DNA of 64,000 bases from a bacterium (GTDB lineage Bacteria; UBA8248). Position numbers and translations under genes: made by a program. The stretch's first letter is position 1, and each line of letters opens with the position of its first letter. This document shows positions 5,011 to 23,682 of this stretch, piece after piece. The notes below the pieces were generated by a model. It made no database searches. It was given only the letters and a program-made list of their open reading frames with translations, and had not been told where the DNA came from. The stretch is taken from the NCBI GenBank assembly GCA_965199855.1, contig OZ241326.1:960001-1024000 (forward strand), written 5' to 3'.

Positions 5011-6227
5011 CCCCGACGGCGTCCCGCCCGCCCGGCGTGGATGAGCCAGGCGAGGCCGGTGGCGACGAGGCAGAGCGCGGCGTAGAAGAGGAACGATTCG
5101 CGCAGACCCGCCGCCTGGGCGATGAGCCCCCCCAGAAAGGGCGACGCGACCGAGGCCGCCTCGTTCGCCGCGTACATGAGGCCGACCGCGCTCGCGCGGT
5201 TTTTCTCCCGCGTCTCGCCCGTGGTCAGCGCGAGCATGAGGCTCTGGGAGGGATTCAGCCCCGCGCCCAGAAGCGCCAGCAGGCCGAAGGAGACGAATAT
5301 CGACTCGGCGCGAGAGAGGAGGGCGAGCGCCAGGGCGCTCGCCGCCATCATGCCGAGGAGAACGCGCGTCTCGCTTCCGCCGTCCGCGCGCTTTCCCCAG
5401 AAGAGGGCGAAGGCGGCGCCGACGAGAAAATAGCCCGTGATCGCCCAGCCGATTTCGATGGTGCCCAGCCCCATCTCCTCCGCCAGCAGCAGGGGCAGGA
5501 AGGTCATGACGCCCCTGAGGCCCATCACCCGGCAGGAGGAGAGCAGCGTCATCAGAATCATGAAGCGATCGCCCAGCAGTTCGCGCGTCGTGGACTTCGC
5601 CGCCTTCGCCATCGAGGCGCCCGCGCCGGGGGCGTCGCGGAACCTGAGCCAGACGACGAGGGCGCAGACGGCCCCCGGCAGGACGAAATACCGCGACGCG
5701 GCGCGCCAGCTCCCCAGATGCGCCGTGAGCCAGCTCATGATCGCGGGCGTCAGGACGCTGCCGAAGTCCCCGCCCGCCTTGAACGCGCCCATGACAAGGC
5801 CCCTGTTTCCGTGATTTTCCCGGGCGAGGAGCGAGACCGCCGCCGGGTGGTAGGCGGAGCAGCCCAGGCCGCTCAGGAATACGAGGGCGAGCAGCCCGGC
5901 GTAGGTGGCCGAATCGCCGTAGAACCAGACGGGCAGGGCGTTCGCGAGCAGGGAGAGCGCCAGAATGAGGCGGGTTTTTCCCGTAAAATCGCCCAGAAAG
6001 GAAATCGGCCACTGGAACAGGCCGCTTGAGAGGGCGTAGATGGAGGCGATGAGCCCCGTCTGCGCGTAGTTCAGGCCGAAGTCGGCCATGATGAGCGGCA
6101 GGACGGGGGTGAGCATCCGGCCATAGACGGAGTTCGCCGCGTGGCTCGCCGAGATGGCGAGGACGCCGCCGCCTGCGTTCATGCGCGCTCCCGGGGCGGG
6201 CGATTCAGCGAGGACGGGAGTCTTCAT
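5007..6227 (-). CDS. MFS transporter
   Basis: ~12 hydrophobic helices, GLGCSAYHP motif; start could be 6182; stop overlaps the lyase start (ATGA). Confidence 0.85.
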   Translation of the reverse strand: MKTPVLAESPAPGARMNAGGGVLAISASHAANSVYGRMLTPVLPLIMADFGLNYAQTGLIASIYALSSGLFQWPISFLGDFTGKTRLILALSLLANALPVWFYGDSATYAGLLALVFLSGLGCSAYHPAAVSLLARENHGNRGLVMGAFKAGGDFGSVLTPAIMSWLTAHLGSWRAASRYFVLPGAVCALVVWLRFRDAPGAGASMAKAAKSTTRELLGDRFMILMTLLSSCRVMGLRGVMTFLPLLLAEEMGLGTIEIGWAITGYFLVGAAFALFWGKRADGGSETRVLLGMMAASALALALLSRAESIFVSFGLLALLGAGLNPSQSLMLALTTGETREKNRASAVGLMYAANEAASVASPFLGGLIAQAAGLRESFLFYAALCLVATGLAWLIHAGRAGRRRG

Positions 6228-6452
6228 ACCACCGATTGCGGCGTCCGGGGAAGGAAGCCGGACGAAAGGTCGGGAGACGGGCGTCCCCGGCGGGGTTTTC
6301 GGGCGGCGCTCCTGTTGACATTTTCGGGCGGCGCGACTACAAGTTGGGTCGGCATCATCGCCGAAAACTGAACCGACGCTCCGAAGCTTCCCGCCGCGGG
6401 GAGCGCGCGTCCGTTCGCGTCGCTTCAACGTCGAAGGAGAGGGAGAAGAAAG

Positions 6453-14877: not shown

Positions 14878-15006
14878 AAAAAATACACCCCCGGAGAGGC
14901 CGGAGGCGTCGCGAGGGTGAGATCGTTTCCCCGTGCCGCGGGGAATTGCCTGCGAAGATTTTCTCCTTGTTGAGAAAAGCGGGGCAGGCATCGATCAGCT
15001 AAAACT
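14878..15006 (-). ncRNA. tracrRNA
   Basis: Anti-repeat 14969-15005 (GUUUUAGCUGAUCGAUGCCUGCCCCGCUUUUCUCAAC) complementary to the crRNA repeat, followed by AAGG/nexus-like stem, hairpin 14927-14945, a terminal hairpin and a U6 tract at 14878-14883. Confidence 0.88.
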
Positions 15007-15012
15007 GATATA

Positions 15013-15041
15013 TTCGTAGGGCATCCCGCGGATTTTGTCAA
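15013..15041 (-). promoter_or_regulatory. Putative tracrRNA promoter
   Basis: Perfect -35 TTGACA (15036-15041), 17 bp, weak -10 TACGAA; predicts a start at ~15006, the anti-repeat 5' end. Confidence 0.5.
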
Positions 15042-15055
15042 GGGGGGATTTGGAC

Positions 15056-18013
15056 ATGCCGCCTCTCACGCTGGGACTCGACCTGGGCCCCAACTCCATC
15101 GGCTGGACGCTCATCGAAGAGAACGAAGCGGGCGACCCCGCGCGCCTGAAGGCCATGGGCGTCCGCGCGTTTCAGGAGATGGTGGACAGGAAGACCAAGA
15201 CGCCGAAGAACCACAAGAGGCGGGACGCGCGGCAGGCGCGCCGCCAGCGCGGAAGGCGAAAGATGCGGCGCGAGACCCTCCGGCGCCAGCTCGTTCGGGC
15301 CGGGCTTCTGCCCGAGGACGCCGGGGCGCTGCGCGGGCTGTTTCACGAGGCCGACCCCTACGAAGTCAGGAAGCGCGGCCTCGACGAGGAGCTGACGCCG
15401 CGCGAGCTGGGCCGCGCCATCTTCCACCTGAACCAGAGGCGGGGGTTTCTGAGCAACCGCAAGGTGCGCGACTCGGGCGAGAAGAAAAAGGAGGACGGCG
15501 TCGCCCTCAAGGAAATCGGGGAGCTGAAAAAGGAAATCAAGGAAGCCGGAAGCCGCACGCTGGGCGAGTTTCTGGCGGGCAAGCCCAAGAAGAGGAGCCG
15601 CCGCACGGAGCGGAGAATGTATGAGGAGGAGTTCGACGTCCTCTGGCGGAAGCAGGCGGAGTTTCACCCCGACTTGCTCACCGACGCCCTTCGCGCCCGC
15701 CTCCGCAAGACCCTGTTCTTCCAGCGGCCCCTGAAGGTTCAGAAGTTTCTCGTCGGGAGATGCACCTTCGAGCCGCACAGGAAGCGATGCCCCTGGCGCC
15801 GGCCGGAGGCGCAATGGTTCCGCGCGCTTCAGGACGTGAACCATCTCGAGATCAAGGACCCGAAAACGCGCCTGTACCGCCCTCTCCGGGAGGAGGAGAG
15901 AGAGGCGATCAAGGGACTGCTCCGGGAGCGGAAAACGCTTTGCTGGAAGAGCATCCGCAGGGCGCTGGGTCTCCACGAGGGCGAGACCTTCAACATCGAG
16001 GACGGCGGCAAGAAGAACCTCATCGGCGCGCGCACGCTCATCGCCGTCCGCAAAATCCTCACGAAGGAGACGTGGGAGGCCATGCCCGAAGCCGACCGCG
16101 CCGCCTTCTTCGAGGACCTGTTCAGCATCGACAAGGAAGAGCTCCTCCTGAAGCGGCTGGAGCGGCGCTGGAATCTCTCGCGCGAGCAGGCGAACGCGCT
16201 GCTGAACACGGAGTTTCAGCCGGGCTACGCCAGCCTCTCTCTGCGCGCGATTCGCAGAATCACGCCGCACCTGGAGCGGGGGCTGAACTATCACGACGCG
16301 TATCAGGAGGAGGGCTATCAGCGCGAGGATCAGAAGAAAGTCGAGGCGGGCGACGCGCTCGCTCCCGCCCCGGCTCTCAGGAATCCCATCGTCCAGAAGG
16401 CGATCAACGAGACGCGCAGGGTGGTGAACGCGATCATCCGGGAATACGGAAAGCCGGACATCATCCGCGTGGAGCTCGCCCGCGACATGAAGCTCAGCCA
16501 GAAGCGCAAGAAGGCGCTCGACCTCCAGAACAGAAAGAACAGGGACATGAACGACGAGGCGCGCAAGCTGATGGCGGAGCTCGGAGTGTTCGACAACGGG
16601 GGCAACCGGCTCAGATACCGCCTGTGGAAGGAGCAGAAGTGCAAGTGCCCCTACACGGGCAGGAGCATCGGGGGGCGCGATATTTTCAGCCCCGAGTTCG
16701 AGATCGATCACATCCTCCCCTACAGCCGGACGCTGGACGACTCCTACATGAACAGAACCCTCTCCCTGGCCTCCGCCAACCGGGCGAAGGGAAACAATAC
16801 CCCCCGGGAGTGGAAGGAGGGCGGCGAGGGGTTCGCCGACATGCTCCAGCGCGTCTCCGCCATGAAGGAGATGCCCTTCTCCAAGAGGCGGCGCTTCGAG
16901 CAGAAGGAGATCGACACGGACGGCTTCATCGACCGCCAGCTCAACGACGCCCGCTACATCAGCCGCGAGGTGAGCCGGTATCTCCAGGCGCTCGGCGCGG
17001 AGGTTCAGGTGACGACGGGGCAGGCCACCGCCGCCCTGCGCCGCTCCTGGCGCCTCGACGGAATTCTCGCCATCGACTCCGACTTGGAGAAAAACCGCGC
17101 CGACCATCGCCACCACGCCATCGACGCGCTGGTCATCGCCCTCACGAGCCGCAAGCTGTTTCTCGCCATCGCGCGCCTCTCCGCCGAGCGGCGCGAGGTT
17201 CTGGGAAAGAAGCGCTTTCCGCTTCCGCCGCCCTGGCCCGGTTTCATGGACGAGGCGCGGGAGAAGGTGGGCGGCATCGTCGTCTCCCACCAGCCGCTCG
17301 GGAAGATCACCGGCGCCTTCCACGAGGAGACCGCCTACGGGCGCATCGAGCATGAGGGGCGCGAGGCTTTCGTCCGCCGGGTTCCGCTGGAGTCGCTCAC
17401 GGCGAAGCAGGTGGAGAAAATCGTGGACGCCCGCGTCCGGGAGCTGGTGAGCGATCGCATGGCCGCCCACGACAACAAGGCCAGGGACGCCTTCGCCAAC
17501 AAGCCCCTGTGGCTGGAGCATTCCCGCAAGCGGACGGGAAGAACGCGAATCAGGACGGTTCGCGTCGCCGAGAATCTCAACCCGGACGGCCTGTTCGGGG
17601 TGAAGCGGCAGGGCGAGGAGACGCCCTTCAAGTATTACGCATACGGGAACAACCACCACGTCGAGATCATCGAGAACGAGAAGACGGGCAGGCGAAAGGG
17701 CGTCGTCGTCACGGCGATGGAGGCCGCCCGGCGCGCCCGCCGGGAAGGAGTCCCTATCGTCCGGCGCAACCATGGCCCGGAATGGCGCTTCGTCATGTCG
17801 CTTTCCATCAACGATATGGTGAGGCTCGACAAGCCCGTGAACGGCTGCGATCTGTATCGGGTTCAAAAACTGTCAGCAACAGGGCAGATGCAAATGATGT
17901 TGCGGGCGCATACGGCCGCTACCCTGGATGACAATGCAACATGTGTAAGGCTAAACCCCAACACGCTCAGGGGACGAAAGATCTCCGTCGATCCTTTGGG
18001 GAACATAATCTGA
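15056..18013 (+). CDS. cas9: Type II-C CRISPR endonuclease Cas9, 985 aa
   Basis: RuvC-I LGLDLGPNSIGW, Arg-rich bridge helix, RuvC-II IRVELARD, HNH EIDHILPYSRTLDDSYMN...NRAKGN, RuvC-III HRHHAIDA, C-terminal VDPLG; catalytic residues intact. Confidence 0.97.
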   Translation: MPPLTLGLDLGPNSIGWTLIEENEAGDPARLKAMGVRAFQEMVDRKTKTPKNHKRRDARQARRQRGRRKMRRETLRRQLVRAGLLPEDAGALRGLFHEADPYEVRKRGLDEELTPRELGRAIFHLNQRRGFLSNRKVRDSGEKKKEDGVALKEIGELKKEIKEAGSRTLGEFLAGKPKKRSRRTERRMYEEEFDVLWRKQAEFHPDLLTDALRARLRKTLFFQRPLKVQKFLVGRCTFEPHRKRCPWRRPEAQWFRALQDVNHLEIKDPKTRLYRPLREEEREAIKGLLRERKTLCWKSIRRALGLHEGETFNIEDGGKKNLIGARTLIAVRKILTKETWEAMPEADRAAFFEDLFSIDKEELLLKRLERRWNLSREQANALLNTEFQPGYASLSLRAIRRITPHLERGLNYHDAYQEEGYQREDQKKVEAGDALAPAPALRNPIVQKAINETRRVVNAIIREYGKPDIIRVELARDMKLSQKRKKALDLQNRKNRDMNDEARKLMAELGVFDNGGNRLRYRLWKEQKCKCPYTGRSIGGRDIFSPEFEIDHILPYSRTLDDSYMNRTLSLASANRAKGNNTPREWKEGGEGFADMLQRVSAMKEMPFSKRRRFEQKEIDTDGFIDRQLNDARYISREVSRYLQALGAEVQVTTGQATAALRRSWRLDGILAIDSDLEKNRADHRHHAIDALVIALTSRKLFLAIARLSAERREVLGKKRFPLPPPWPGFMDEAREKVGGIVVSHQPLGKITGAFHEETAYGRIEHEGREAFVRRVPLESLTAKQVEKIVDARVRELVSDRMAAHDNKARDAFANKPLWLEHSRKRTGRTRIRTVRVAENLNPDGLFGVKRQGEETPFKYYAYGNNHHVEIIENEKTGRRKGVVVTAMEAARRARREGVPIVRRNHGPEWRFVMSLSINDMVRLDKPVNGCDLYRVQKLSATGQMQMMLRAHTAATLDDNATCVRLNPNTLRGRKISVDPLGNII

Positions 18014-18030
18014 AGCCCAGGAGACCGCCC

Positions 18031-18924
18031 ATGATCAAAAGAATCGTAGAGATCGGTAGTCCCGCCCGTCTCTCGCTCAGCAAGAAGCAGCTGAAGGTCG
18101 AGCGGGAGGAGTTCGCCGCCGAGTCGCTCCCCGTGGAGGATCTGGGGGTTCTGATTCTCGACCACCCCGCCATCCGTCCCTCACAGGGGCTGCTATCCGA
18201 GTGCATGAAGAACAACGTGGCCGTCGTCATGTGCGACGAGAAGCACCTGCCCGCCTCCGTCCTGCTTCCCCTGGACGGCCACACCCTGCACAGCAAAATC
18301 GTCAGGGAGCAGGCCGCCGCCACCCCCGGCAGAATGGGCCGCATCTGGCGGGCGATTGTCCGCGCGAAGATTCTCGCCCAGGCGGACGCCCTGGACGCCT
18401 TTGACGAATACGGCGGCCCGCTTCGCGCCATCGCCGGGCGCGCCGGACGGGAGAACCCCGCCCACGCCGAGGCGCGCGCCGCGCGGATGTATTGGCCCAG
18501 AATGTTCGGCGAGGACTTCAGGCGCAACCGCGCCCTTCCCGGCGTGAACCGCCTGCTGAACTACGGCTACTCGCTCGTGCGCGCGGCGACGGCGCGGGCG
18601 GTCGTCGCCGCGGGGCTTCACCCCGCCTTCGGTCTCCACCACCACAACCAGTACGACGGCTTCTGCCTCGCCGACGACCTGATGGAGCCTCTGCGCCCGA
18701 TGGTGGACCGCAGGGTGCGCCTCATGCGCGACGCGCCGGACTTCTGGGGGGAGGAGCCGAAGCTCGGCAGGGAGGAGAAGCGCGAGCTGCTGGGCGCGCT
18801 GGCGGGCGAGGCGCGGCTCGGCGGCAGGACCTACCCCCTTCTCACCGCCCTGCAATACTACGCCGCCGGCGTTCGCCGCGTCCTCTGCGGAGAGGAGAAG
18901 GAGACGGACATCCCCCGGCCATGA
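18031..18924 (+). CDS. cas1: Type II CRISPR-associated Cas1
   Basis: PVEDLG, CDEKHLP, EARAARMYW, NRLLNYGY, GLHH, LADDLMEP; follows cas9. Confidence 0.96.
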   Translation: MIKRIVEIGSPARLSLSKKQLKVEREEFAAESLPVEDLGVLILDHPAIRPSQGLLSECMKNNVAVVMCDEKHLPASVLLPLDGHTLHSKIVREQAAATPGRMGRIWRAIVRAKILAQADALDAFDEYGGPLRAIAGRAGRENPAHAEARAARMYWPRMFGEDFRRNRALPGVNRLLNYGYSLVRAATARAVVAAGLHPAFGLHHHNQYDGFCLADDLMEPLRPMVDRRVRLMRDAPDFWGEEPKLGREEKRELLGALAGEARLGGRTYPLLTALQYYAAGVRRVLCGEEKETDIPRP

Positions 18925-19250
18925 CCTTCGGGGGGCTGCGCTCCATGTGGCTCATGGTGATGTTCGACCTGCCGACCGACACGAAGGCGGCGCGCAAGGC
19001 GTATCAGGCGTTTCGGGGCGCGCTGCTGGAGGACGGCTTCACCATGCTCCAGTATTCGGTCTATGCCCGCCACTGCCCGAGCAGCGAGAACGCCGGGGCG
19101 CACGAGAGGCGGGTGAACGCCGCCCTGCCCCCCGACGGGGAGGTGCGGCTCCTTCTTTTCACCGACGCGCAGTTCTCGCGCATGAAAATTTTTCACGGAA
19201 AGGTTCGGGGGGCGACGGAGAAGGCTCCCGATCAGGTCTCGCTGTTCTGA
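18921..19250 (+). CDS. cas2: CRISPR-associated Cas2
   Basis: MWLMVMFDLPT, FRxxLLEDGFTMLQYSVYAR; ATGA overlap with cas1; no csn2 or cas4 follows, hence II-C. Confidence 0.96.
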   Translation: MTFGGLRSMWLMVMFDLPTDTKAARKAYQAFRGALLEDGFTMLQYSVYARHCPSSENAGAHERRVNAALPPDGEVRLLLFTDAQFSRMKIFHGKVRGATEKAPDQVSLF

Positions 19251-19280
19251 CCCGCTTCGGGAGCCTGAACCCCAACCGGT

Positions 19281-19340
19281 GCTGATCGATGCCTGGCGCA
19301 ATTCACAACTACAAGAAGTGACTGGTTTATTGCGTTTCCC
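19281..19340 (-). ncRNA. Solitary degenerate repeat plus spacer-like sequence; putative regulatory crRNA-like guide (scaRNA/CreA-like)
   Basis: 19281-19309 = GCTGATCGATGCCTGGCGCAATTCACAAC (array repeat minus ATTATA, 1 deletion, 1 substitution); the adjacent 19310-19322 is the exact reverse complement of 19636-19648. Confidence 0.75.
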
Positions 19341-19396
19341 AGCTTCTTGCCCTACTATCAAATGACCCGTGGCGCGGGGAGAAGCCTATGTGCTGA

Positions 19397-19507
19397 CTAG
19401 CGGGATTTTGGCTTCGACCGCTTATGCGGCTTTACTGGTACCGTTTTGGGACCAGGCTTGTTGCCAGGACGAACTTGCCGCACTTTCTTCTGGCAATTAT
19501 TAGCCAT
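19397..19507 (-). CDS. 36-aa basic Lys/Arg/Pro-rich peptide MANNCQKKVRQVRPGNKPGPKTVPVKPHKRSKPKSR (putative Cas9-repressed effector or toxin)
   Basis: Strong RBS AAGGAGG just upstream of ATG; downstream of a canonical sigma70 promoter; function inferred only from context. Confidence 0.65.
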   Translation of the reverse strand: MANNCQKKVRQVRPGNKPGPKTVPVKPHKRSKPKSR

Positions 19508-19628
19508 AGCTCCCTCCTTTCTCCTCTGGTCATCACCCAGAGGTGGAAAAGTCAGGGCGAACGAGCGGATTTCCCCGCGCCACGGGGAACTCAAGTAGAT
19601 TTCATCTCTAACGCCCACCGCGTATATG

Positions 19629-19657
19629 ATACTACGTCACTTCTTGTAAGAAATCAA
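19629..19657 (-). promoter_or_regulatory. Sigma70 promoter of the small peptide, containing the guide target site
   Basis: -35 TTGATT (19652-19657), 17-bp spacer, -10 TAGTAT (19629-19634), AT-rich UP-like tract beyond -35; protospacer seed 19636-19648 lies in the spacer. Confidence 0.7.
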
Positions 19658-19811
19658 TAAAATAATCTGGAAAATAGCATATTTTATTCCCATCCGCCGC
19701 AATCGCTTGGCTTGATGATATTTTCCTTGCGCGCTCCCGGTAGATGAGCCCCGCCAAGATACTCGCCTTTGTCCGTCCTCGGTTGTGTTAATCAATGCGC
19801 CTAGCAGACAG

Positions 19812-19860
19812 AAAAGGCTCCCTAGCGGATCACGTTGTTGTGACCTGCTTCCGGGAGCCT
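19812..19860 (-). terminator. Putative terminator of the array transcript, within the duplicated cas2 3' end/leader
   Basis: AGGCTCCC...GGGAGCCT stem with inner pairing, followed by UUUU on the minus strand. Confidence 0.45.
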
Positions 19861-19894
19861 AAACCTAACCGGTTCAAACCGTTCGAGAGAACAT

Positions 19895-21377
19895 ATTATA
19901 GCTGATCGATGCCTGCCCGCAATTCACAACTGACATACCCAGTGCTCCGCCGCGCGCTTCATTATAGCTGATCGATGCCTGCCCGCAATTCACAACTGAC
20001 GTTTTCGGCGACGTCGTACTCAATCGATTATAGCTGATCGATGCCTGCCCGCAATTCACAACCCAGTCGCTGGCCTTCGCGCTCGGCCACGATTATAGCT
20101 GATCGATGCCTGCCCGCAATTCACAACTCGCGCACGTAACGCTCCGCGTCGTCCTCGATTATAGCTGATCGATGCCTGCCCGCAATTCACAACTCAAGCA
20201 CGCGGGAGAGCCGGACTTCTCCATTATAGCTGATCGATGCCTGCCCGCAATTCACAACGACCTCGCGCTCAGGCTGCGCGCTGAGTTATTATAGCTGATC
20301 GATGCCTGCCCGCAATTCACAACCGTGGGGGGCGAAGGTTCTCACGCGAGGCGATTATAGCTGATCGATGCCTGCCCGCAATTCACAACCCGGCAAACCC
20401 CTTTGAACCGCCTTTTTTCATTATAGCTGATCGATGCCTGCCCGCAATTCACAACTTCGGCAATTTGTCGTTCCGGCAACCGTTGATTATAGCTGATCGA
20501 TGCCTGCCCGCAATTCACAACCGGTGAACATTTCCCATCTGCCTCTCGAAGATTATAGCTGATCGATGCCTGCCCGCAATTCACAACCGCATGCGCTGGG
20601 CGGCGCTCGCGCATCTCATTATAGCTGATCGATGCCTGCCCGCAATTCACAACTGCGCGGGGACATTTGCCGTGGCGTCCCTATTATAGCTGATCGATGC
20701 CTGCCCGCAATTCACAACTCAGGGGCGCATGGATCCACCTGGACGGGGATTATAGCTGATCGATGCCTGCCCGCAATTCACAACCGATCCTGACGCAGCC
20801 GGAGGTCGTCGCGCATTATAGCTGATCGATGCCTGCCCGCAATTCACAACCGCGAGGGGCGGACAGGCCCAGCCCATGCGATTATAGCTGATCGATGCCT
20901 GCCCGCAATTCACAACCCTCCGCGATCATGTCCTCCGTCATCCCCTATTATAGCTGATCGATGCCTGCCCGCAATTCACAACATCCCCGCTCCCGTCCTC
21001 TTTCGAGTTGGCATTATAGCTGATCGATGCCTGCCCGCAATTCACAACGGATATCATTCAATGGATTCTCCCTCAACCATTATAGCTGATCGATGCCTGC
21101 CCGCAATTCACAACATCGGCCGCCGCCCGGGCGCGGACGCCCACATTATAGCTGATCGATGCCTGCCCGCAATTCACAACTGTGCCGCCCGAGGACGAGC
21201 GGCATCGGCATTATAGCTGATCGATGCCTGCCCGCAATTCACAACTGAAGGCGATGACGCCGTTCGCCGTCGGCGATTATAGCTGATCGATGCCTGCCCG
21301 CAATTCACAACTCTCGCCGCGGGTCGATGGCAACGCATTCAATTATAGCTGATCGATGCCTGCCCGCAATTCACAAC
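19895..21377 (-). CRISPR. CRISPR array, 23 identical 36-bp repeats and 22 spacers (17 of 30 nt, 5 of 29 nt)
   Basis: Plus-strand repeat ATTATAGCTGATCGATGCCTGCCCGCAATTCACAAC. Its minus-strand form GTTGTG...CTATAAT has the II-C layout and pairs with the tracrRNA, so the array is transcribed toward cas2. Confidence 0.98.
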
Positions 21378-21714: not shown

Positions 21715-23682
21715 TTACCGCGCCGCCTGCGCCAGCGCGGTTGCCGCGTCCGCCTGCGCCCAGGCGGCGCTCATCGCTTCCCAGGTCTCGCCCATGGCGG
21801 CCTTCCCCTTTTCCACCGCCGCCTGCGCCGTCGTAGTTCCCGCGGCCCGCGTCTGCTCCCACGCCGCTTTCGCCGCGCCCAGGGTCGCCGCCGCCTGCGC
21901 CAGCGCGGCGTCCATTTTCGCCCACGCCGCCCGCGCCTTTCCCTTCCCTCTCGCCGCCGCCTTCGCCGCGTCCGCCGCCTTCAGGGCCTTTTCCATGGCC
22001 GCCTTCGCCGCCGCATACCACGTCGTCTGCGCCCTGTTCGTCTCGTTGCGCGCCGCCTTTATCGCCCGCCAGACCGCCAGGGTCGCCGCGTCCGCCCGGT
22101 CGAGCGACGCCTGAGCCTTCTCCTTCCCCCTCGCCGCCGCCCTCAGCGCGGCGTCCGCCTGCGCCAGCGCCGCCCGCGCCTTTCCCTCAGCCGCCTTCGC
22201 CCGCGACGCTCTCGTCCGGGCCGCGGCTCTCTCTCGCGCGGCCTTCGTCAAAGCCGTCCGCGCCTGCGCGGCCTGGGCCTTCTCCCTCGCCGCGTCCGCC
22301 CGGGCGCGCGCCGCCGACTCATGTCTTGACGCCCGGAGGCTCTCCGCATACGCCCGAGCCGCCTGCGCCTTCGCCGCGTCAAAGGCCGCCGCGGCCTGCT
22401 CCCGCGCCGCCTGCGCCCGAGCCATCCTCACCGCCGCCGCCCGATCCCGCGCCGCCGACGCGTGGGCCCTCTCCAGCGCCGCGTGCGCTTTTTTCAGCGC
22501 CGCATCCGCCCGCGCCCACGCCGCCTTCGCTTTTCTCCGGGCCGTCTGAGCCGCCCGCGACGCCTTCACCCGCGCCGCCGCCGCTTTCCACGCCGTCTGC
22601 GCCGCGCGCTCCCGCGCCGTCGCTCTGTTCCTCACCGCCTTCGCATTGGCCGCTCTCGTCTGGGCCGCGGCTCTCTCCCGCGCCGCCTTCTCGTGCGCCA
22701 TCCTCGCCTTCGCCGCCCGCGCATGCGCCGCTCGCGCCTTCGCCGCGGCTCTTTCCCGCGCCGCCTGGGCCTGAGCCATCCGCGCCTTCGCCGCCCGCCC
22801 CGCCGCGTCCGCCTGGGCGCGCGCCGCCTGCGCCCTCGCCGCCTGCGTCCGCGCGGTCTCCCACGCGGCCCGGGCCCTCGCCGCCTGCGCCCGCGCGGCG
22901 CTCCACGCCGTCTGCGCCGCGCGCTCCCGCGCGTCCGCCGCCTGCCACGCCTCATCCGCCGTCCGCAGCCCCGCCTTCACCTGAGCGTTCTGCGCCGCCG
23001 CCATCTTTTCCAGCTTCGCCGCGGTGGCCGCCTGCGCGGCCTTCATCTTCTCCCACGCGGCCTGCGCCGCCGCCTCGTCCCCGTTCCACAGCGCCGCGGC
23101 CCTCTCTCTCGCCGCCGCCCGCACCCGGGCCATGCCCTCCGCGTATATCCCCAGCTCCGGGAGAGCGTCTTCCAGCCCGGCGGGCCCGGGCCTGGTCCCC
23201 CGAAGCAGCCGCGCTTCCCATTCCTCGCGCGCCGCGTGCGCCTTCTCCCACGCCGCGGACGCCCTTTCCCACGCCGCCTTCGCCTTCTCCCACGCGGCCT
23301 GGGCCGCCGCCTCGAGCGCCGCCGCCTCGCGCGCCGCGGCGTCCGCCTTCTCCTGGGCGGCCTGCGCCGCCTTTTCTCTCGCCGCGGCTTTTTTCCACGC
23401 CGCCTGCGCCCGCGCCGCCGGGGTCGCCGCCGCCCTTTCCCACGCCGCGGCGTCCGCCTTCTCCCGCGCCACCGCCGCCAGCGCCGCCTTTTCTCTCGCC
23501 GCCGCCCTTTCCCACGCGGCCTGCGCCGCGCGCGCCCGCGCCGCCGCCCTTTCCCGCGCCGCGAGGGTGGCCCGCGCCCGCGCCGCCAGGGATTTCTCTC
23601 GCGCCGCGCTCGCCCCGAATGACGGGACGGGCGCGGCAAGCGCGATTGCCGCCGCCAGCGCGCAGATCAAAAGCCTCCGCAT
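21715..23682 (-). CDS. Secreted Ala-rich repetitive coiled-coil protein
   Basis: Signal peptide MRRLLICALAAAIALAAP; recurring AQAAWE(R/K)AAARE(K/R) units across 655 aa. Confidence 0.6.
   Translation of the reverse strand: MRRLLICALAAAIALAAPVPSFGASAAREKSLAARARATLAARERAAARARAAQAAWERAAAREKAALAAVAREKADAAAWERAAATPAARAQAAWKKAAAREKAAQAAQEKADAAAREAAALEAAAQAAWEKAKAAWERASAAWEKAHAAREEWEARLLRGTRPGPAGLEDALPELGIYAEGMARVRAAARERAAALWNGDEAAAQAAWEKMKAAQAATAAKLEKMAAAQNAQVKAGLRTADEAWQAADARERAAQTAWSAARAQAARARAAWETARTQAARAQAARAQADAAGRAAKARMAQAQAARERAAAKARAAHARAAKARMAHEKAARERAAAQTRAANAKAVRNRATARERAAQTAWKAAAARVKASRAAQTARRKAKAAWARADAALKKAHAALERAHASAARDRAAAVRMARAQAAREQAAAAFDAAKAQAARAYAESLRASRHESAARARADAAREKAQAAQARTALTKAARERAAARTRASRAKAAEGKARAALAQADAALRAAARGKEKAQASLDRADAATLAVWRAIKAARNETNRAQTTWYAAAKAAMEKALKAADAAKAAARGKGKARAAWAKMDAALAQAAATLGAAKAAWEQTRAAGTTTAQAAVEKGKAAMGETWEAMSAAWAQADAATALAQAAR

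Follow-up and report, generated by a model that had tools for sequence, protein, structure and literature searches.

A small cationic peptide gene in a type II-C CRISPR locus as candidate cargo of a Cas9-repressed toxin module

We analyzed a 64,000-nucleotide (nt) stretch of a bacterial genome (lineage UBA8248; GenBank assembly GCA_965199855.1, contig OZ241326.1, positions 960,001 to 1,024,000; called the window throughout) in which a type II-C clustered regularly interspaced short palindromic repeat (CRISPR) system holds, in the gap separating its cas2 from its array, a gene for a 36-amino-acid (aa) peptide. By analogy with the CreTA and CrePA systems, we tentatively propose that this gene is the cargo of a Cas9-repressed toxin module, a proposal that we find plausible while rating it a little short of an even chance. 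Its regulatory half is the firmer one: a short guide-like RNA encoded next to the gene would probably direct Cas9 to repress the peptide promoter, judging from the arrangement of the sequences. The gene is real and conserved, the guide-like RNA has the right geometry, its short pseudo-spacer has a unique match inside a candidate promoter of the gene, and all of this is kept in a sister genome of the same genus, G017. The elements of the module, all read on the minus strand, are as follows.

19397 to 19507, minus strand: gene for the 36-aa peptide (based on translation, alignment with the sister genome and the family, and codon-position bias)
19273 to 19309, minus strand: degenerate repeat, psiR, which adjoins cas2 just after the first leader copy
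19310 to 19322, minus strand: 13-nt pseudo-spacer, psiS, directly 5' of psiR in the RNA (inverted repeat I2)
19629 to 19657, minus strand: candidate promoter, TTGATT (19657-19652), 17 nt, TAGTAT (19634-19629), with the psiS target within its spacer

The peptide gene, its family, and its mRNA

The minus strand of positions 19397 to 19507 translates to MANNCQKKVRQVRPGNKPGPKTVPVKPHKRSKPKSR, followed by a stop codon. The peptide has 8 Lys and 4 Arg among its 36 residues, no Asp or Glu, and no hydrophobic stretch; a reading made from the sequence alone had described just such a Lys/Arg-rich open reading frame (ORF) without acidic residues or a hydrophobic helix, and had set it apart from membrane-inserting type I toxins, and translation confirms both points. 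The near-perfect Shine-Dalgarno (SD) sequence named in that sequence-only reading is AAGGAGG (19519-19513), 5 nt ahead of the ATG at 19507. The frame stays open as far as a GTG at 19618 (73 aa in the ORF listing), and we place the start at the ATG rather than at this GTG because of the SD sequence and the family alignment. The codon usage, which had been called foreign to the GC-rich host, is indeed so, with a third-position GC content of 54% for the ORF versus 88% for cas9, and an overall GC content of 51% versus 67% for the genome. Proline accounts for 6 of the 36 residues, PRP repeats and consecutive Pro codons are absent, and none of the codons AGA, AGG, and ATA was seen in the ORF. AlphaFold2, given a 35-sequence alignment, predicts an extended chain devoid of secondary structure (predicted local distance difference test score 75, predicted template-modeling score 0.18). 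The exact peptide was not found in a collection of 15 billion proteins, and the letters of the ORF are unchanged in the 4 public runs compared.

Chance alone would allow a 36-codon ORF at 51% GC, and it is conservation that lifts this one above chance. The homologue search with gene-neighborhood analysis that the sequence-only reading had suggested as a check found the ORF conserved, and the relatives include a peptide of the same length in the sister cassette (MADCQKKPRQVRSGKKPGPKTVQVDPHKRSKPKPCK, 36 aa) that is 77% identical on a DNA background of 71% identity. The differences between the two genes fall at codon positions 1, 2, and 3 in the proportion 5/3/17, and the ratio of nonsynonymous to synonymous differences per site (pN/pS) is 0.23 in the ORF frame versus 0.39 to 2.4 in the five other frames, the likewise open antisense frame scoring 1.26. 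This comparison indicates that the ORF is under purifying selection between the window and G017. Across eight family genes, taken from Alpha-, Gamma-, and Zetaproteobacteria and one Parcubacteria metagenome-assembled genome (MAG), pS is 0.58 to 1.14 (near saturation) and pN is 0.15 to 0.38, giving ratios of 0.19 to 0.50, and the conserved Ser switches between TCN and AGC codons. On these sequence comparisons, the ORF is very probably a genuine protein-coding gene.

The peptide belongs to a family with the consensus M..C.K..R.VR..KKPGPKTVPVKPHKRSKPK..C, the conserved core of which, KPGPKTVxVKPHKRSKP, is often flanked by Cys residues. Back-translated pattern scans, with each locus confirmed by tblastn, yielded 9 family loci among 93 pattern matches in species genomes, 37 among 99 in metagenome contigs, and 14 among 30 in IMG/VR viral contigs. 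A profile search of 1.84 billion representatives returned 54 proteins with an expectation value (E) of at most 1e-3; none fell below 1e-10, which is expected because the profile spans only 35 positions. Its range runs from Alphaproteobacteria as far as the Parcubacteria MAG, which is of a candidate-phyla-radiation lineage, and phage members are included. Most members are 33 to 60 aa long, and in many of them the motif KTVxVKPH(K/R)RS(K/T)P occurs twice. In the 35-sequence alignment, R13, V25, and R30 are invariant, and at least 90% of the sequences share R10, K17, P18, G19, K21, V23, H28, S31, P33, and a Cys at the C terminus; the N-terminal Cys is found in 34 of 35, and the C-terminal Cys is replaced in the window peptide (Arg) and in that of locus L043 (Phe).

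No known family accommodates these peptides among the resources searched. Pfam and NCBIfam gave no family at E of 10 or better for the six members tested; in PHROGs, seven of nine members had no match and the other two matched weakly (E of 0.86 and 0.16) to families of unknown function. The best three ESM Atlas clusters (0.81 to 0.83) are unnamed and lie under the evidence level, the source annotations say only "hypothetical protein," and a literature search found the motif strings in no paper. From these searches, the family is an unnamed, widespread, and mobile one, consisting of small basic proteins borne by phages as well as by further mobile genetic elements (MGEs).

Its genomic contexts are diverse. 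We profiled the ORFs nearest to the peptide gene, leaving out duplicate contigs, which amounted to 38 of 75 ORFs in species genomes, 64 of 127 in metagenomes, and 41 of 97 in viral contigs, and among the family loci profiled there was no recurring partner gene. The ORFs downstream of the gene at L004 and L006 were considered as a conserved partner and rejected, as they are not homologous. At four loci (L006, L047, L048, and L049), the peptide gene follows a transposase of the insertion sequence (IS) family IS1595 by about 100 to 200 nt on the same strand, like an IS passenger. At three (L063, L071, and L072), it comes directly after a TIR-domain gene (about 20 nt at L071 and L072, about 200 nt at L063), and these loci also hold an Eco57I-type enzyme and GmrSD; at two more (L065 and L066), it lies about 100 nt after a WYL regulator, with HNH and PycTM genes next. 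These TIR- and WYL-linked peptides are two-motif versions without Cys, within defense islands. Other neighbors are AbiE, MazF/Panacea, RHS, RadC, and Gp49, and those in viral contigs are terminase, portal, major head, RecT/RecE, and primase-helicase genes. Locus L007, a Mariprofundus contig of 1.4 kb, has two peptide genes of 95% identity, at 212-317 and 1247-1352, with a DUF2335 gene between them.

One member recalls the window in being placed within a CRISPR system of another type. On a 2.9-kb metagenome contig (L051), the family member MSTKTKCRPVRTGGKPGPKTVTVKPHKRSKPKALPKCK, at 115-228, immediately precedes csy1, with csy2 next (262-2525 together), and the peptide gene ends some 30 to 75 nt before csy1. 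By analogy with described loci, this site is the cas3-csy1 gap of a type I-F system, the gap in which CrePA and I-F CreTA modules lie. The contig begins 114 nt 5' of the ATG and is too short for a pseudo-repeat search; its first 23 nt fold as a small hairpin with CTTA behind it, and these may belong to a pseudo-repeat.

The predicted mRNA of the peptide gene appears to be locked upon itself through the following elements.

19366 to 19380, minus strand: arm of a closing helix in the 3' untranslated region (UTR) (inverted repeat I1, 15/15 complementary; present in the minimum-free-energy [MFE] and centroid folds)
19572 to 19586, minus strand: 5'-UTR arm of the closing helix (supported by the folds and by the helix score against shuffles)
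19513 to 19548, minus strand: SD sequence AAGGAGG (19519-19513) and the hairpin upstream of it (arms 19518-19529 and 19537-19548; inverted repeat I7)

In the predicted transcript, a 15-bp helix between the 5' and 3' UTRs encloses the ORF, and the SD sequence is paired in the MFE fold. The predicted folding energy is -108.7 kcal/mol (z = -4.4), and the G017 transcript has the same closure (z = -6.4); the hairpin ahead of the SD sequence differs between the two by two compensatory pairs (CCTCTGG/CCAGAGG in the window, CCTTCGG/CCGAAGG in G017). To score closure across the family, we took the best ungapped helix between the 120 nt upstream and the 90 nt downstream of each ORF and compared it with 200 dinucleotide shuffles; this score replaced RNA.duplexfold between UTR windows, which gave no separation from shuffles. 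Two loci were left out, L051 for its short flank and L058 for its uncertain start. In 5 of 8 loci, including the window, none of the 200 shuffles matched the closing helix, and in 17 of 21 additional loci no more than 2 did, so that 22 of 29 loci have it, a count that is not of independent cases since some close relatives share arms. The loci without it are L007, L010, L011, L053, L106, L109, and L116. Helix arms are 13 to 30 nt long and end 48 to 100 nt before the ATG, their sequences differ between lineages, and many family members have a long SD sequence, AAGGAGGTGAT. Translationally locked type I toxin mRNAs are built in this way, closed from 5' to 3' with a buried SD sequence.

The guide-like RNA and its promoter target

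The locus that harbors the peptide gene comprises a Cas9 system.

14878 to 15004, minus strand: tracrRNA gene; anti-repeat at about 15001-14969, then hairpins and a T-run at about 14883-14878
15035 to 18013, plus strand: cas9 (992 aa), intact, with Pfam domains RuvC_III, HNH_4, and Cas9_a
17941 to 18924, plus strand: cas1 (Pfam Cas_Cas1)
18921 to 19250, plus strand: cas2 (Pfam CRISPR_Cas2)
19658 to 19806, no strand assigned: insert filler, which holds the trace of a tRNA-Leu-like relic
19807 to 19894, plus strand: second copy of the cas2 3' end and leader (repeat family D1)
19895 to 21377, read on the minus strand: CRISPR array of 23 identical 36-nt repeats, oriented from the trans-activating CRISPR RNA (tracrRNA)

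The anti-repeat contains a 20-nt exact complement (14982-15001) to repeat positions 13 to 32. Because of the orientation of the tracrRNA, we take the CRISPR RNAs (crRNAs) to be minus-strand RNAs of the form spacer-GTTGTGAATTGCGGG..., and we assign the system to subtype II-C because of its gene content and this crRNA geometry; no other cas genes were found among the neighboring ORFs profiled. The peptide ORF sits between the end of cas2 (19250) and the start of the array (19895), inside a stretch of about 500 nt with a GC content of about 50% (50 to 51%; genome, 67%), and is bracketed by the two D1 copies (19214-19280 and 19807-19873; 67 nt, 73% identical), one on each side. Six more genomes of the genus have arrays of the same repeat family. 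For five of these (G011, G012, G015, G016, and G019), only 27 to 42 nt separate the end of cas2 from the first repeat, and the duplicated leader and cassette are found among the six in G017 only. Within 42 genomes of the taxonomic family, the cassette is present in two, that of the window, where it is single-copy, and G017. By its composition and distribution, the cassette is a foreign low-GC insert between cas2 and the array.

At the cas2 end of this insert, psiR matches the repeat at 28 of 30 aligned columns with one gap, and it retains the repeat's 5' 12 nt and a 15-nt block of perfect pairing. Its predicted duplex with the tracrRNA anti-repeat has an energy of -43.5 kcal/mol, compared with -54.5 kcal/mol for the true repeat and -18.4 ± 3.6 kcal/mol for shuffled psiR (best of 500 shuffles, -38.3). 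This single repeat sits 3' of the pseudo-spacer, which is the arrangement that Cas9 crRNAs need, and psiS (GTCACTTCTTGTA in the RNA sense) thereby takes the position of the seed of a Cas9 guide, next to the protospacer adjacent motif (PAM). The 13 nt of psiS are a perfect inverted repeat (13/13) of 19636-19648. In the 3,043,534-bp genome the 13-mer has two sites, the guide and the target, where 0.013 are expected, and its 10-nt core is likewise confined to these two. The target fills the 17-nt gap between the -35 and -10 boxes of the candidate promoter, which lies on the strand of the ORF some 120 nt upstream, and the PAM-side flank (AGAAATCAA, plus strand from 19649) extends across the -35 box and is the same in both genomes. 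Two features of RNAs of the small CRISPR-Cas-associated RNA (scaRNA) type are thus present, namely, a locus-encoded degenerate repeat that pairs with the tracrRNA and a short match near a candidate transcription start. The sequence-only reading had called the peptide a candidate effector tied to the CRISPR locus, and this idea gains substance here: the gene is real and foreign, and its candidate promoter holds the sole genomic match to the crRNA-like pseudo-spacer.

The sister genome carries the same elements in a different order. Its degenerate repeat also adjoins cas2, is preceded by TCACTTCTTGTA, has a 12-nt match to the target, and keeps the tracrRNA pairing by way of a G-U pair. The promoter-ORF module is inverted in G017 relative to cas2, psiR, and psiS, so that the guide and target copies, which in the window are an inverted repeat, make a direct repeat there. 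Despite this inversion, the target's relation to the promoter (TTGATT-17-TATATT in G017) and to the flank AGAAATCAA is kept in both genomes, and the target with the -35 box (19637-19657) is identical at 21 of 21 nt versus 71% for the cassette. Preservation of the match through an inversion fits Cas9 targeting of DNA in trans, which is orientation independent. Transposon terminal repeats and a target-site duplication, considered as readings of the 13-nt pair, were rejected because they do not fit both orientations, and antisense RNA-RNA pairing does not fit an arrangement that is inverted in one genome and direct in the other. In G017, a TACAAT box (the hexamer with which the array repeats there end) stands 26 nt upstream of the crRNA-like unit and a terminator-like hairpin at the end of psiR, and from these features the unit looks self-contained. 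The window's guide, downstream of the ORF and on its strand, may be made by read-through from the very promoter that it would repress, which would give a self-limiting circuit.

Several further observations concern the locus as a whole. Every array repeat, that at 19895-19930 included, ends, in the RNA sense, in TATAAT, and those of G017 end in TACAAT, which is consistent with repeat-internal promoters by analogy with the Neisseria type II-C arrays, for which such promoters are known. A tracrRNA hairpin, TCCCCGCGGCACGGGG, resembles the 3' arm of the cassette; we treat this as coincidence because the G017 tracrRNA loop differs while the G017 cassette arm is unchanged. Just downstream of its peptide ORF, G017 has a 90-nt tRNA-like gene with a long variable arm (L002 1366-1455, equivalent to L005 at about 6181-6270), of which the window keeps 12 of 13 nt at about 19746-19758. 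ARAGORN calls it tRNA-Pro(UGG), and a mistranslating tRNA toxin was considered and rejected because its closest relative is tRNA-Leu(GAG) (62/87), its acceptor stem is decayed, and the window retains a 13-nt trace; judging from sequence, this gene is probably what is left, in decayed form, of a tRNA-Leu at an integration site. Among the public runs, the metagenome run X8 contains a strain variant with a 45-nt deletion (19329-19373) between the pseudo-spacer and the ORF, along with single-base differences at 19232, 19530, and 19635 (cassette and cas2 end) and at 19893-19894, before the first array repeat; these differences spare the ORF and the 13-nt target. Rfam gave two sub-threshold matches between 14000 and 24000, both elsewhere than the peptide cassette. 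Just past the array, a 655-aa ORF (21715-23682, minus strand) has no Pfam match and contains GC-rich repeats, the periods of which are multiples of 21 nt (families D3 to D7).

A proposed mechanism and its alternatives

In the mechanism that we propose, a type II-C system of this genus would first have captured the peptide gene, between its cas2 and its array, and put it under Cas9 control. The crRNA-like RNA, consisting of the 13-nt pseudo-spacer and the degenerate repeat, would pair with the tracrRNA and load into Cas9, and through a seed match of only 12 to 13 nt Cas9 would bind without cutting and block transcription between the -35 and -10 boxes. If Cas9 or the tracrRNA were lost, mutated, or blocked by an anti-CRISPR, the promoter would fire; the self-locked mRNA, with its closing helix and buried strong SD sequence, would then have to be opened for the peptide to be made, which adds a second layer of control. 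The peptide would arrest growth, by analogy with CreTA and CrePA. Our best guess at its route, a possibility that the sequence-only reading had raised for nucleic acid and the ribosome, is that the extended cationic chain binds a nucleic-acid machine (ribosome, RNA, or DNA); a chain that is unstructured and strongly cationic and carries a conserved linear motif points to such a target. For this scheme we infer that both RNAs are transcribed, that Cas9 binds, that the PAM is suitable, and that the peptide is toxic and has a cellular target. That the peptide is a toxic effector seems to us, on the same analogy, an almost evenly balanced question. A broader and more doubtful proposal, which we offer as speculation, is that a type II (Cas9) system is here guarded for the first time in the manner of CreTA and CrePA, that its cargo comes from a new and widespread phage and MGE family of cationic peptides of about 35 aa on self-locking mRNAs, that type I-F independently recruited the same family at the cas3-csy1 position, and that such peptides serve as a general "plug-in" growth-arrest effector in circuits of defense and addiction.

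A number of observations weigh against the proposed module. The support comes from two genomes of one genus and is not independent, and the guide and target are identical in both, which leaves no covariation. A consensus promoter scan does not call the window promoter (8/12). It does call the G017 promoter as the sole promoter-like site in 650 nt of cassette, a result in which only the position of the site is informative, since shuffled G017 cassettes yield 1.0 ± 1.1 sites. No convincing promoter of its own was found for the crRNA-like RNA of the window. No PAM was derived, and no convincing protospacers were found, when the window array was searched against 42 genomes of the taxonomic family and phages, 197 spacers of related arrays against the window's genome, a 5.2-kb related array against 44 genomes of the order, plasmids, and phages, and four more arrays against phages; these searches gave partial GC-rich matches and one match of 28/30. 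The latter is the one plausible protospacer for the repeat family, a G015 spacer (L080 1193-1222) that matches the major capsid gene of a T4-like Methylophilales phage of the Melnitz-type myoviruses (MZ577096.1; L103 61-90). Its flank, TACACCTG, is unlike that of the promoter, AGAAATCA, and the G015 Cas9 is a different orthologue. The five relatives with a short gap between cas2 and the array do without the module altogether, the X8 deletion takes half of the 3' helix arm, and the window peptide, which ends in Arg instead of Cys, may be weakened, to judge from the alignment. The family lies mostly outside CRISPR loci, in phage structural and replication modules, beside IS1595 transposases, and after TIR and WYL genes, and these members could have another role. 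Finally, the contexts of the family would fit a nontoxic role as well as the proposed toxic one.

Two different G015 spacers match the same 17 to 18 nt of the window's genome, on opposite strands, at G000:C1:799479-799496, outside the window, which hints at a shared, diverged mobile-element target.

The nontoxic role can be formulated as an alternative in which Cas9 regulates a benign or defensive nucleic-acid-binding factor, such as a regulator or accessory of antiphage defense, that comes on when Cas9 is inhibited, in the way of the type I systems called "CRISPR-supervised." Available excerpts of one study describe type I crRNA-like RNAs that repress promoters of the immune system (10.1101/2024.12.27.630466), which lends this idea a precedent. 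The two-motif relatives that follow TIR and WYL genes in defense islands, the relatives beside terminase, portal, and head genes in viral contigs, and the predicted extended chain without a fold would all suit such a cargo. It is harder to reconcile with a gene that travels alone and has no conserved partner. A locked mRNA with a buried, near-perfect SD sequence is, moreover, the layout of toxic small ORFs, and overall we think this reading, a Cas9-regulated but nontoxic cargo, unlikely.

It is also possible that the arrangement is a relic, in which a mobile small-ORF module landed at the leader-proximal end of the array, psiR is a decayed first repeat, and the 13-nt match has lost any function and merely survives, for example, from a spacer once taken up from the module. 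The duplicated cas2 end and leader, the tRNA-Leu-like relic in G017, the 45-nt deletion in one strain, the missing C-terminal Cys of the window peptide, and the five relatives without the module are what decay would leave behind. Decay does not readily explain why the target and -35 box stand out as fully conserved above the cassette background, how the match survived inversion, or why psiR has kept its pairing with the tracrRNA in both genomes; the ORF, for its part, is under purifying selection and shows no change in the public runs. We therefore regard a relic as improbable and prefer the Cas9-repressed module.

The remaining two alternatives had both been raised by the sequence-only reading and fare poorly. 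An RNA toxin like CreT, in which the ribosome-recruiting transcript rather than the peptide is active, could invoke the strong SD sequence, short ORF, and GC-rich 3' hairpin that CreT RNAs also have, according to the accessible sections of 10.64898/2026.06.02.729485, as well as the unusually long SD sequence, AAGGAGGTGAT, of many family members. It is very improbable in light of an amino acid sequence that selection has conserved across phyla while synonymous sites are saturated, and of an ORF that lacks consecutive Pro codons and in which rare codons for Arg or Ile were not seen. Modulation of Cas9 or Cas1-Cas2 by the peptide, for which the position inside the cas-array junction and the relative that adjoins csy1 might speak, is scarcely credible, as Cas9, Cas1, and Cas2 homologues occur near only 1 of 46 family loci (that of G017) and the family is common in phages, IS elements, defense islands, and genomes without a nearby CRISPR locus.

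Relation to known systems

Type I toxin mRNAs of the hok/Sok kind combine fold-back inhibition, 5'-3' closure, and a sequestered SD sequence, and the window gene resembles them in having a small ORF on a predicted 5'-3'-closed mRNA with an occluded SD sequence. Type I toxins are mostly hydrophobic membrane peptides paired with an antisense RNA, whereas the peptide here has no hydrophobic segment and no antisense RNA was seen, none having been sought. Proline-rich cationic antimicrobial peptides, which the sequence-only reading had invoked, offer another comparison, being short, cationic, Pro-containing, and unstructured; the present peptide differs in that it has no PRP repeats, has a Cys-flanked motif, would be made inside the cell, and is borne by mobile elements.

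A close parallel is CrePA, a CRISPR-repressed proteinic toxin with its CreA RNA from Acinetobacter baylyi's type I-F system, as described in the accessible sections of 10.1101/2024.01.05.574328. As far as those sections go, both cases involve a foreign gene inside a CRISPR-cas locus (a phage-related protein toxin gene in CrePA, a peptide gene with a proposed toxin role here), a crRNA-like RNA that partly matches the promoter of the cargo, and firing upon inhibition of the effector, proposed or shown. CrePA, as portrayed there, works through Csy (Cascade), two flanking pseudo-repeats, a 19-nt match, a CC PAM, and a 103-aa KilAC-domain toxin. In the window, the effector would instead be Cas9 with its tracrRNA, and there are one pseudo-repeat, a match of 12 to 13 nt, and, as the candidate cargo, an unrelated, unstructured basic peptide of 36 aa. 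In the same excerpts, CreTA- and CrePA-type repressed toxins are described for type I (I-B and I-F).

With CreTA (I-B, I-F), the window shares the addiction logic, a promoter-targeting pseudo-spacer, and the combination of a strong SD sequence, short ORF, and GC hairpin, to go by the available text of 10.64898/2026.06.02.729485. According to that text, CreT acts as an RNA by means of mini-ORFs with rare codons or Pro-Pro, whereas in our case the peptide sequence is under selection, and CreTA belongs to class 1, whereas here the locus is that of Cas9.

On the type II side, the likeness is to scaRNA and tracr-L. In the passages available from PMC13431127, as proposed for the window, an RNA with a degenerate repeat from a type II locus pairs with the tracrRNA (scaRNA), and a short match guides Cas9 to repress without cutting. 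For tracr-L (II-A), a match of 11 bp is enough for repression, per the accessible part of 10.1101/2023.03.03.530964. The targets named in these excerpts are lipoprotein genes (scaRNA of Francisella novicida, II-B) and the cas9 promoter (tracr-L, II-A), none of them a captured, toxin-like cargo beside its guide, and the II-C scaRNA of Neisseria meningitidis targets efeO mRNA in a largely Cas9-independent manner (PMC13431127, same passages). Across the portions available of the papers cited here, PMC12737573 and 10.1101/2024.10.29.618823 among them, crRNA-like repression is described in I-B, I-F1, II-A (tracr-L), and II-B (scaRNA), with toxin cargos in type I; type V-A is mentioned in the excerpts of 10.1101/2023.03.03.530964 and 10.1101/2024.01.05.574328 only for crRNA-like and Cas-regulating RNAs. 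Some 6% of type II loci are noted to hold mini-arrays distinct from the tracrRNA, which are not analyzed further in the accessible part of 10.1101/2023.03.03.530964. Full-text searches on this theme found no Cas9-repressed toxin module; the supplementary locus tables of this last paper, which lay outside the search, could contain the present locus or similar ones.

How CRISPR loci withstand loss and penalize elements that carry anti-CRISPRs is explained by CRISPR-repressed toxins. If the reading proposed here is true, a Cas9 version would mean that tracrRNA-dependent systems evolved the same safeguard, and the window would hold a compact, natural, Cas9-dependent kill switch, with the prediction that elements carrying AcrIIC are aborted in such hosts. 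The cellular target of the peptide family could reveal a new way to arrest bacterial growth. What appears to be new relative to the systems compared above is thus, by analogy with them, a Cas9-type candidate of the CreTA/CrePA scheme, with an uncharacterized peptide family as its cargo.

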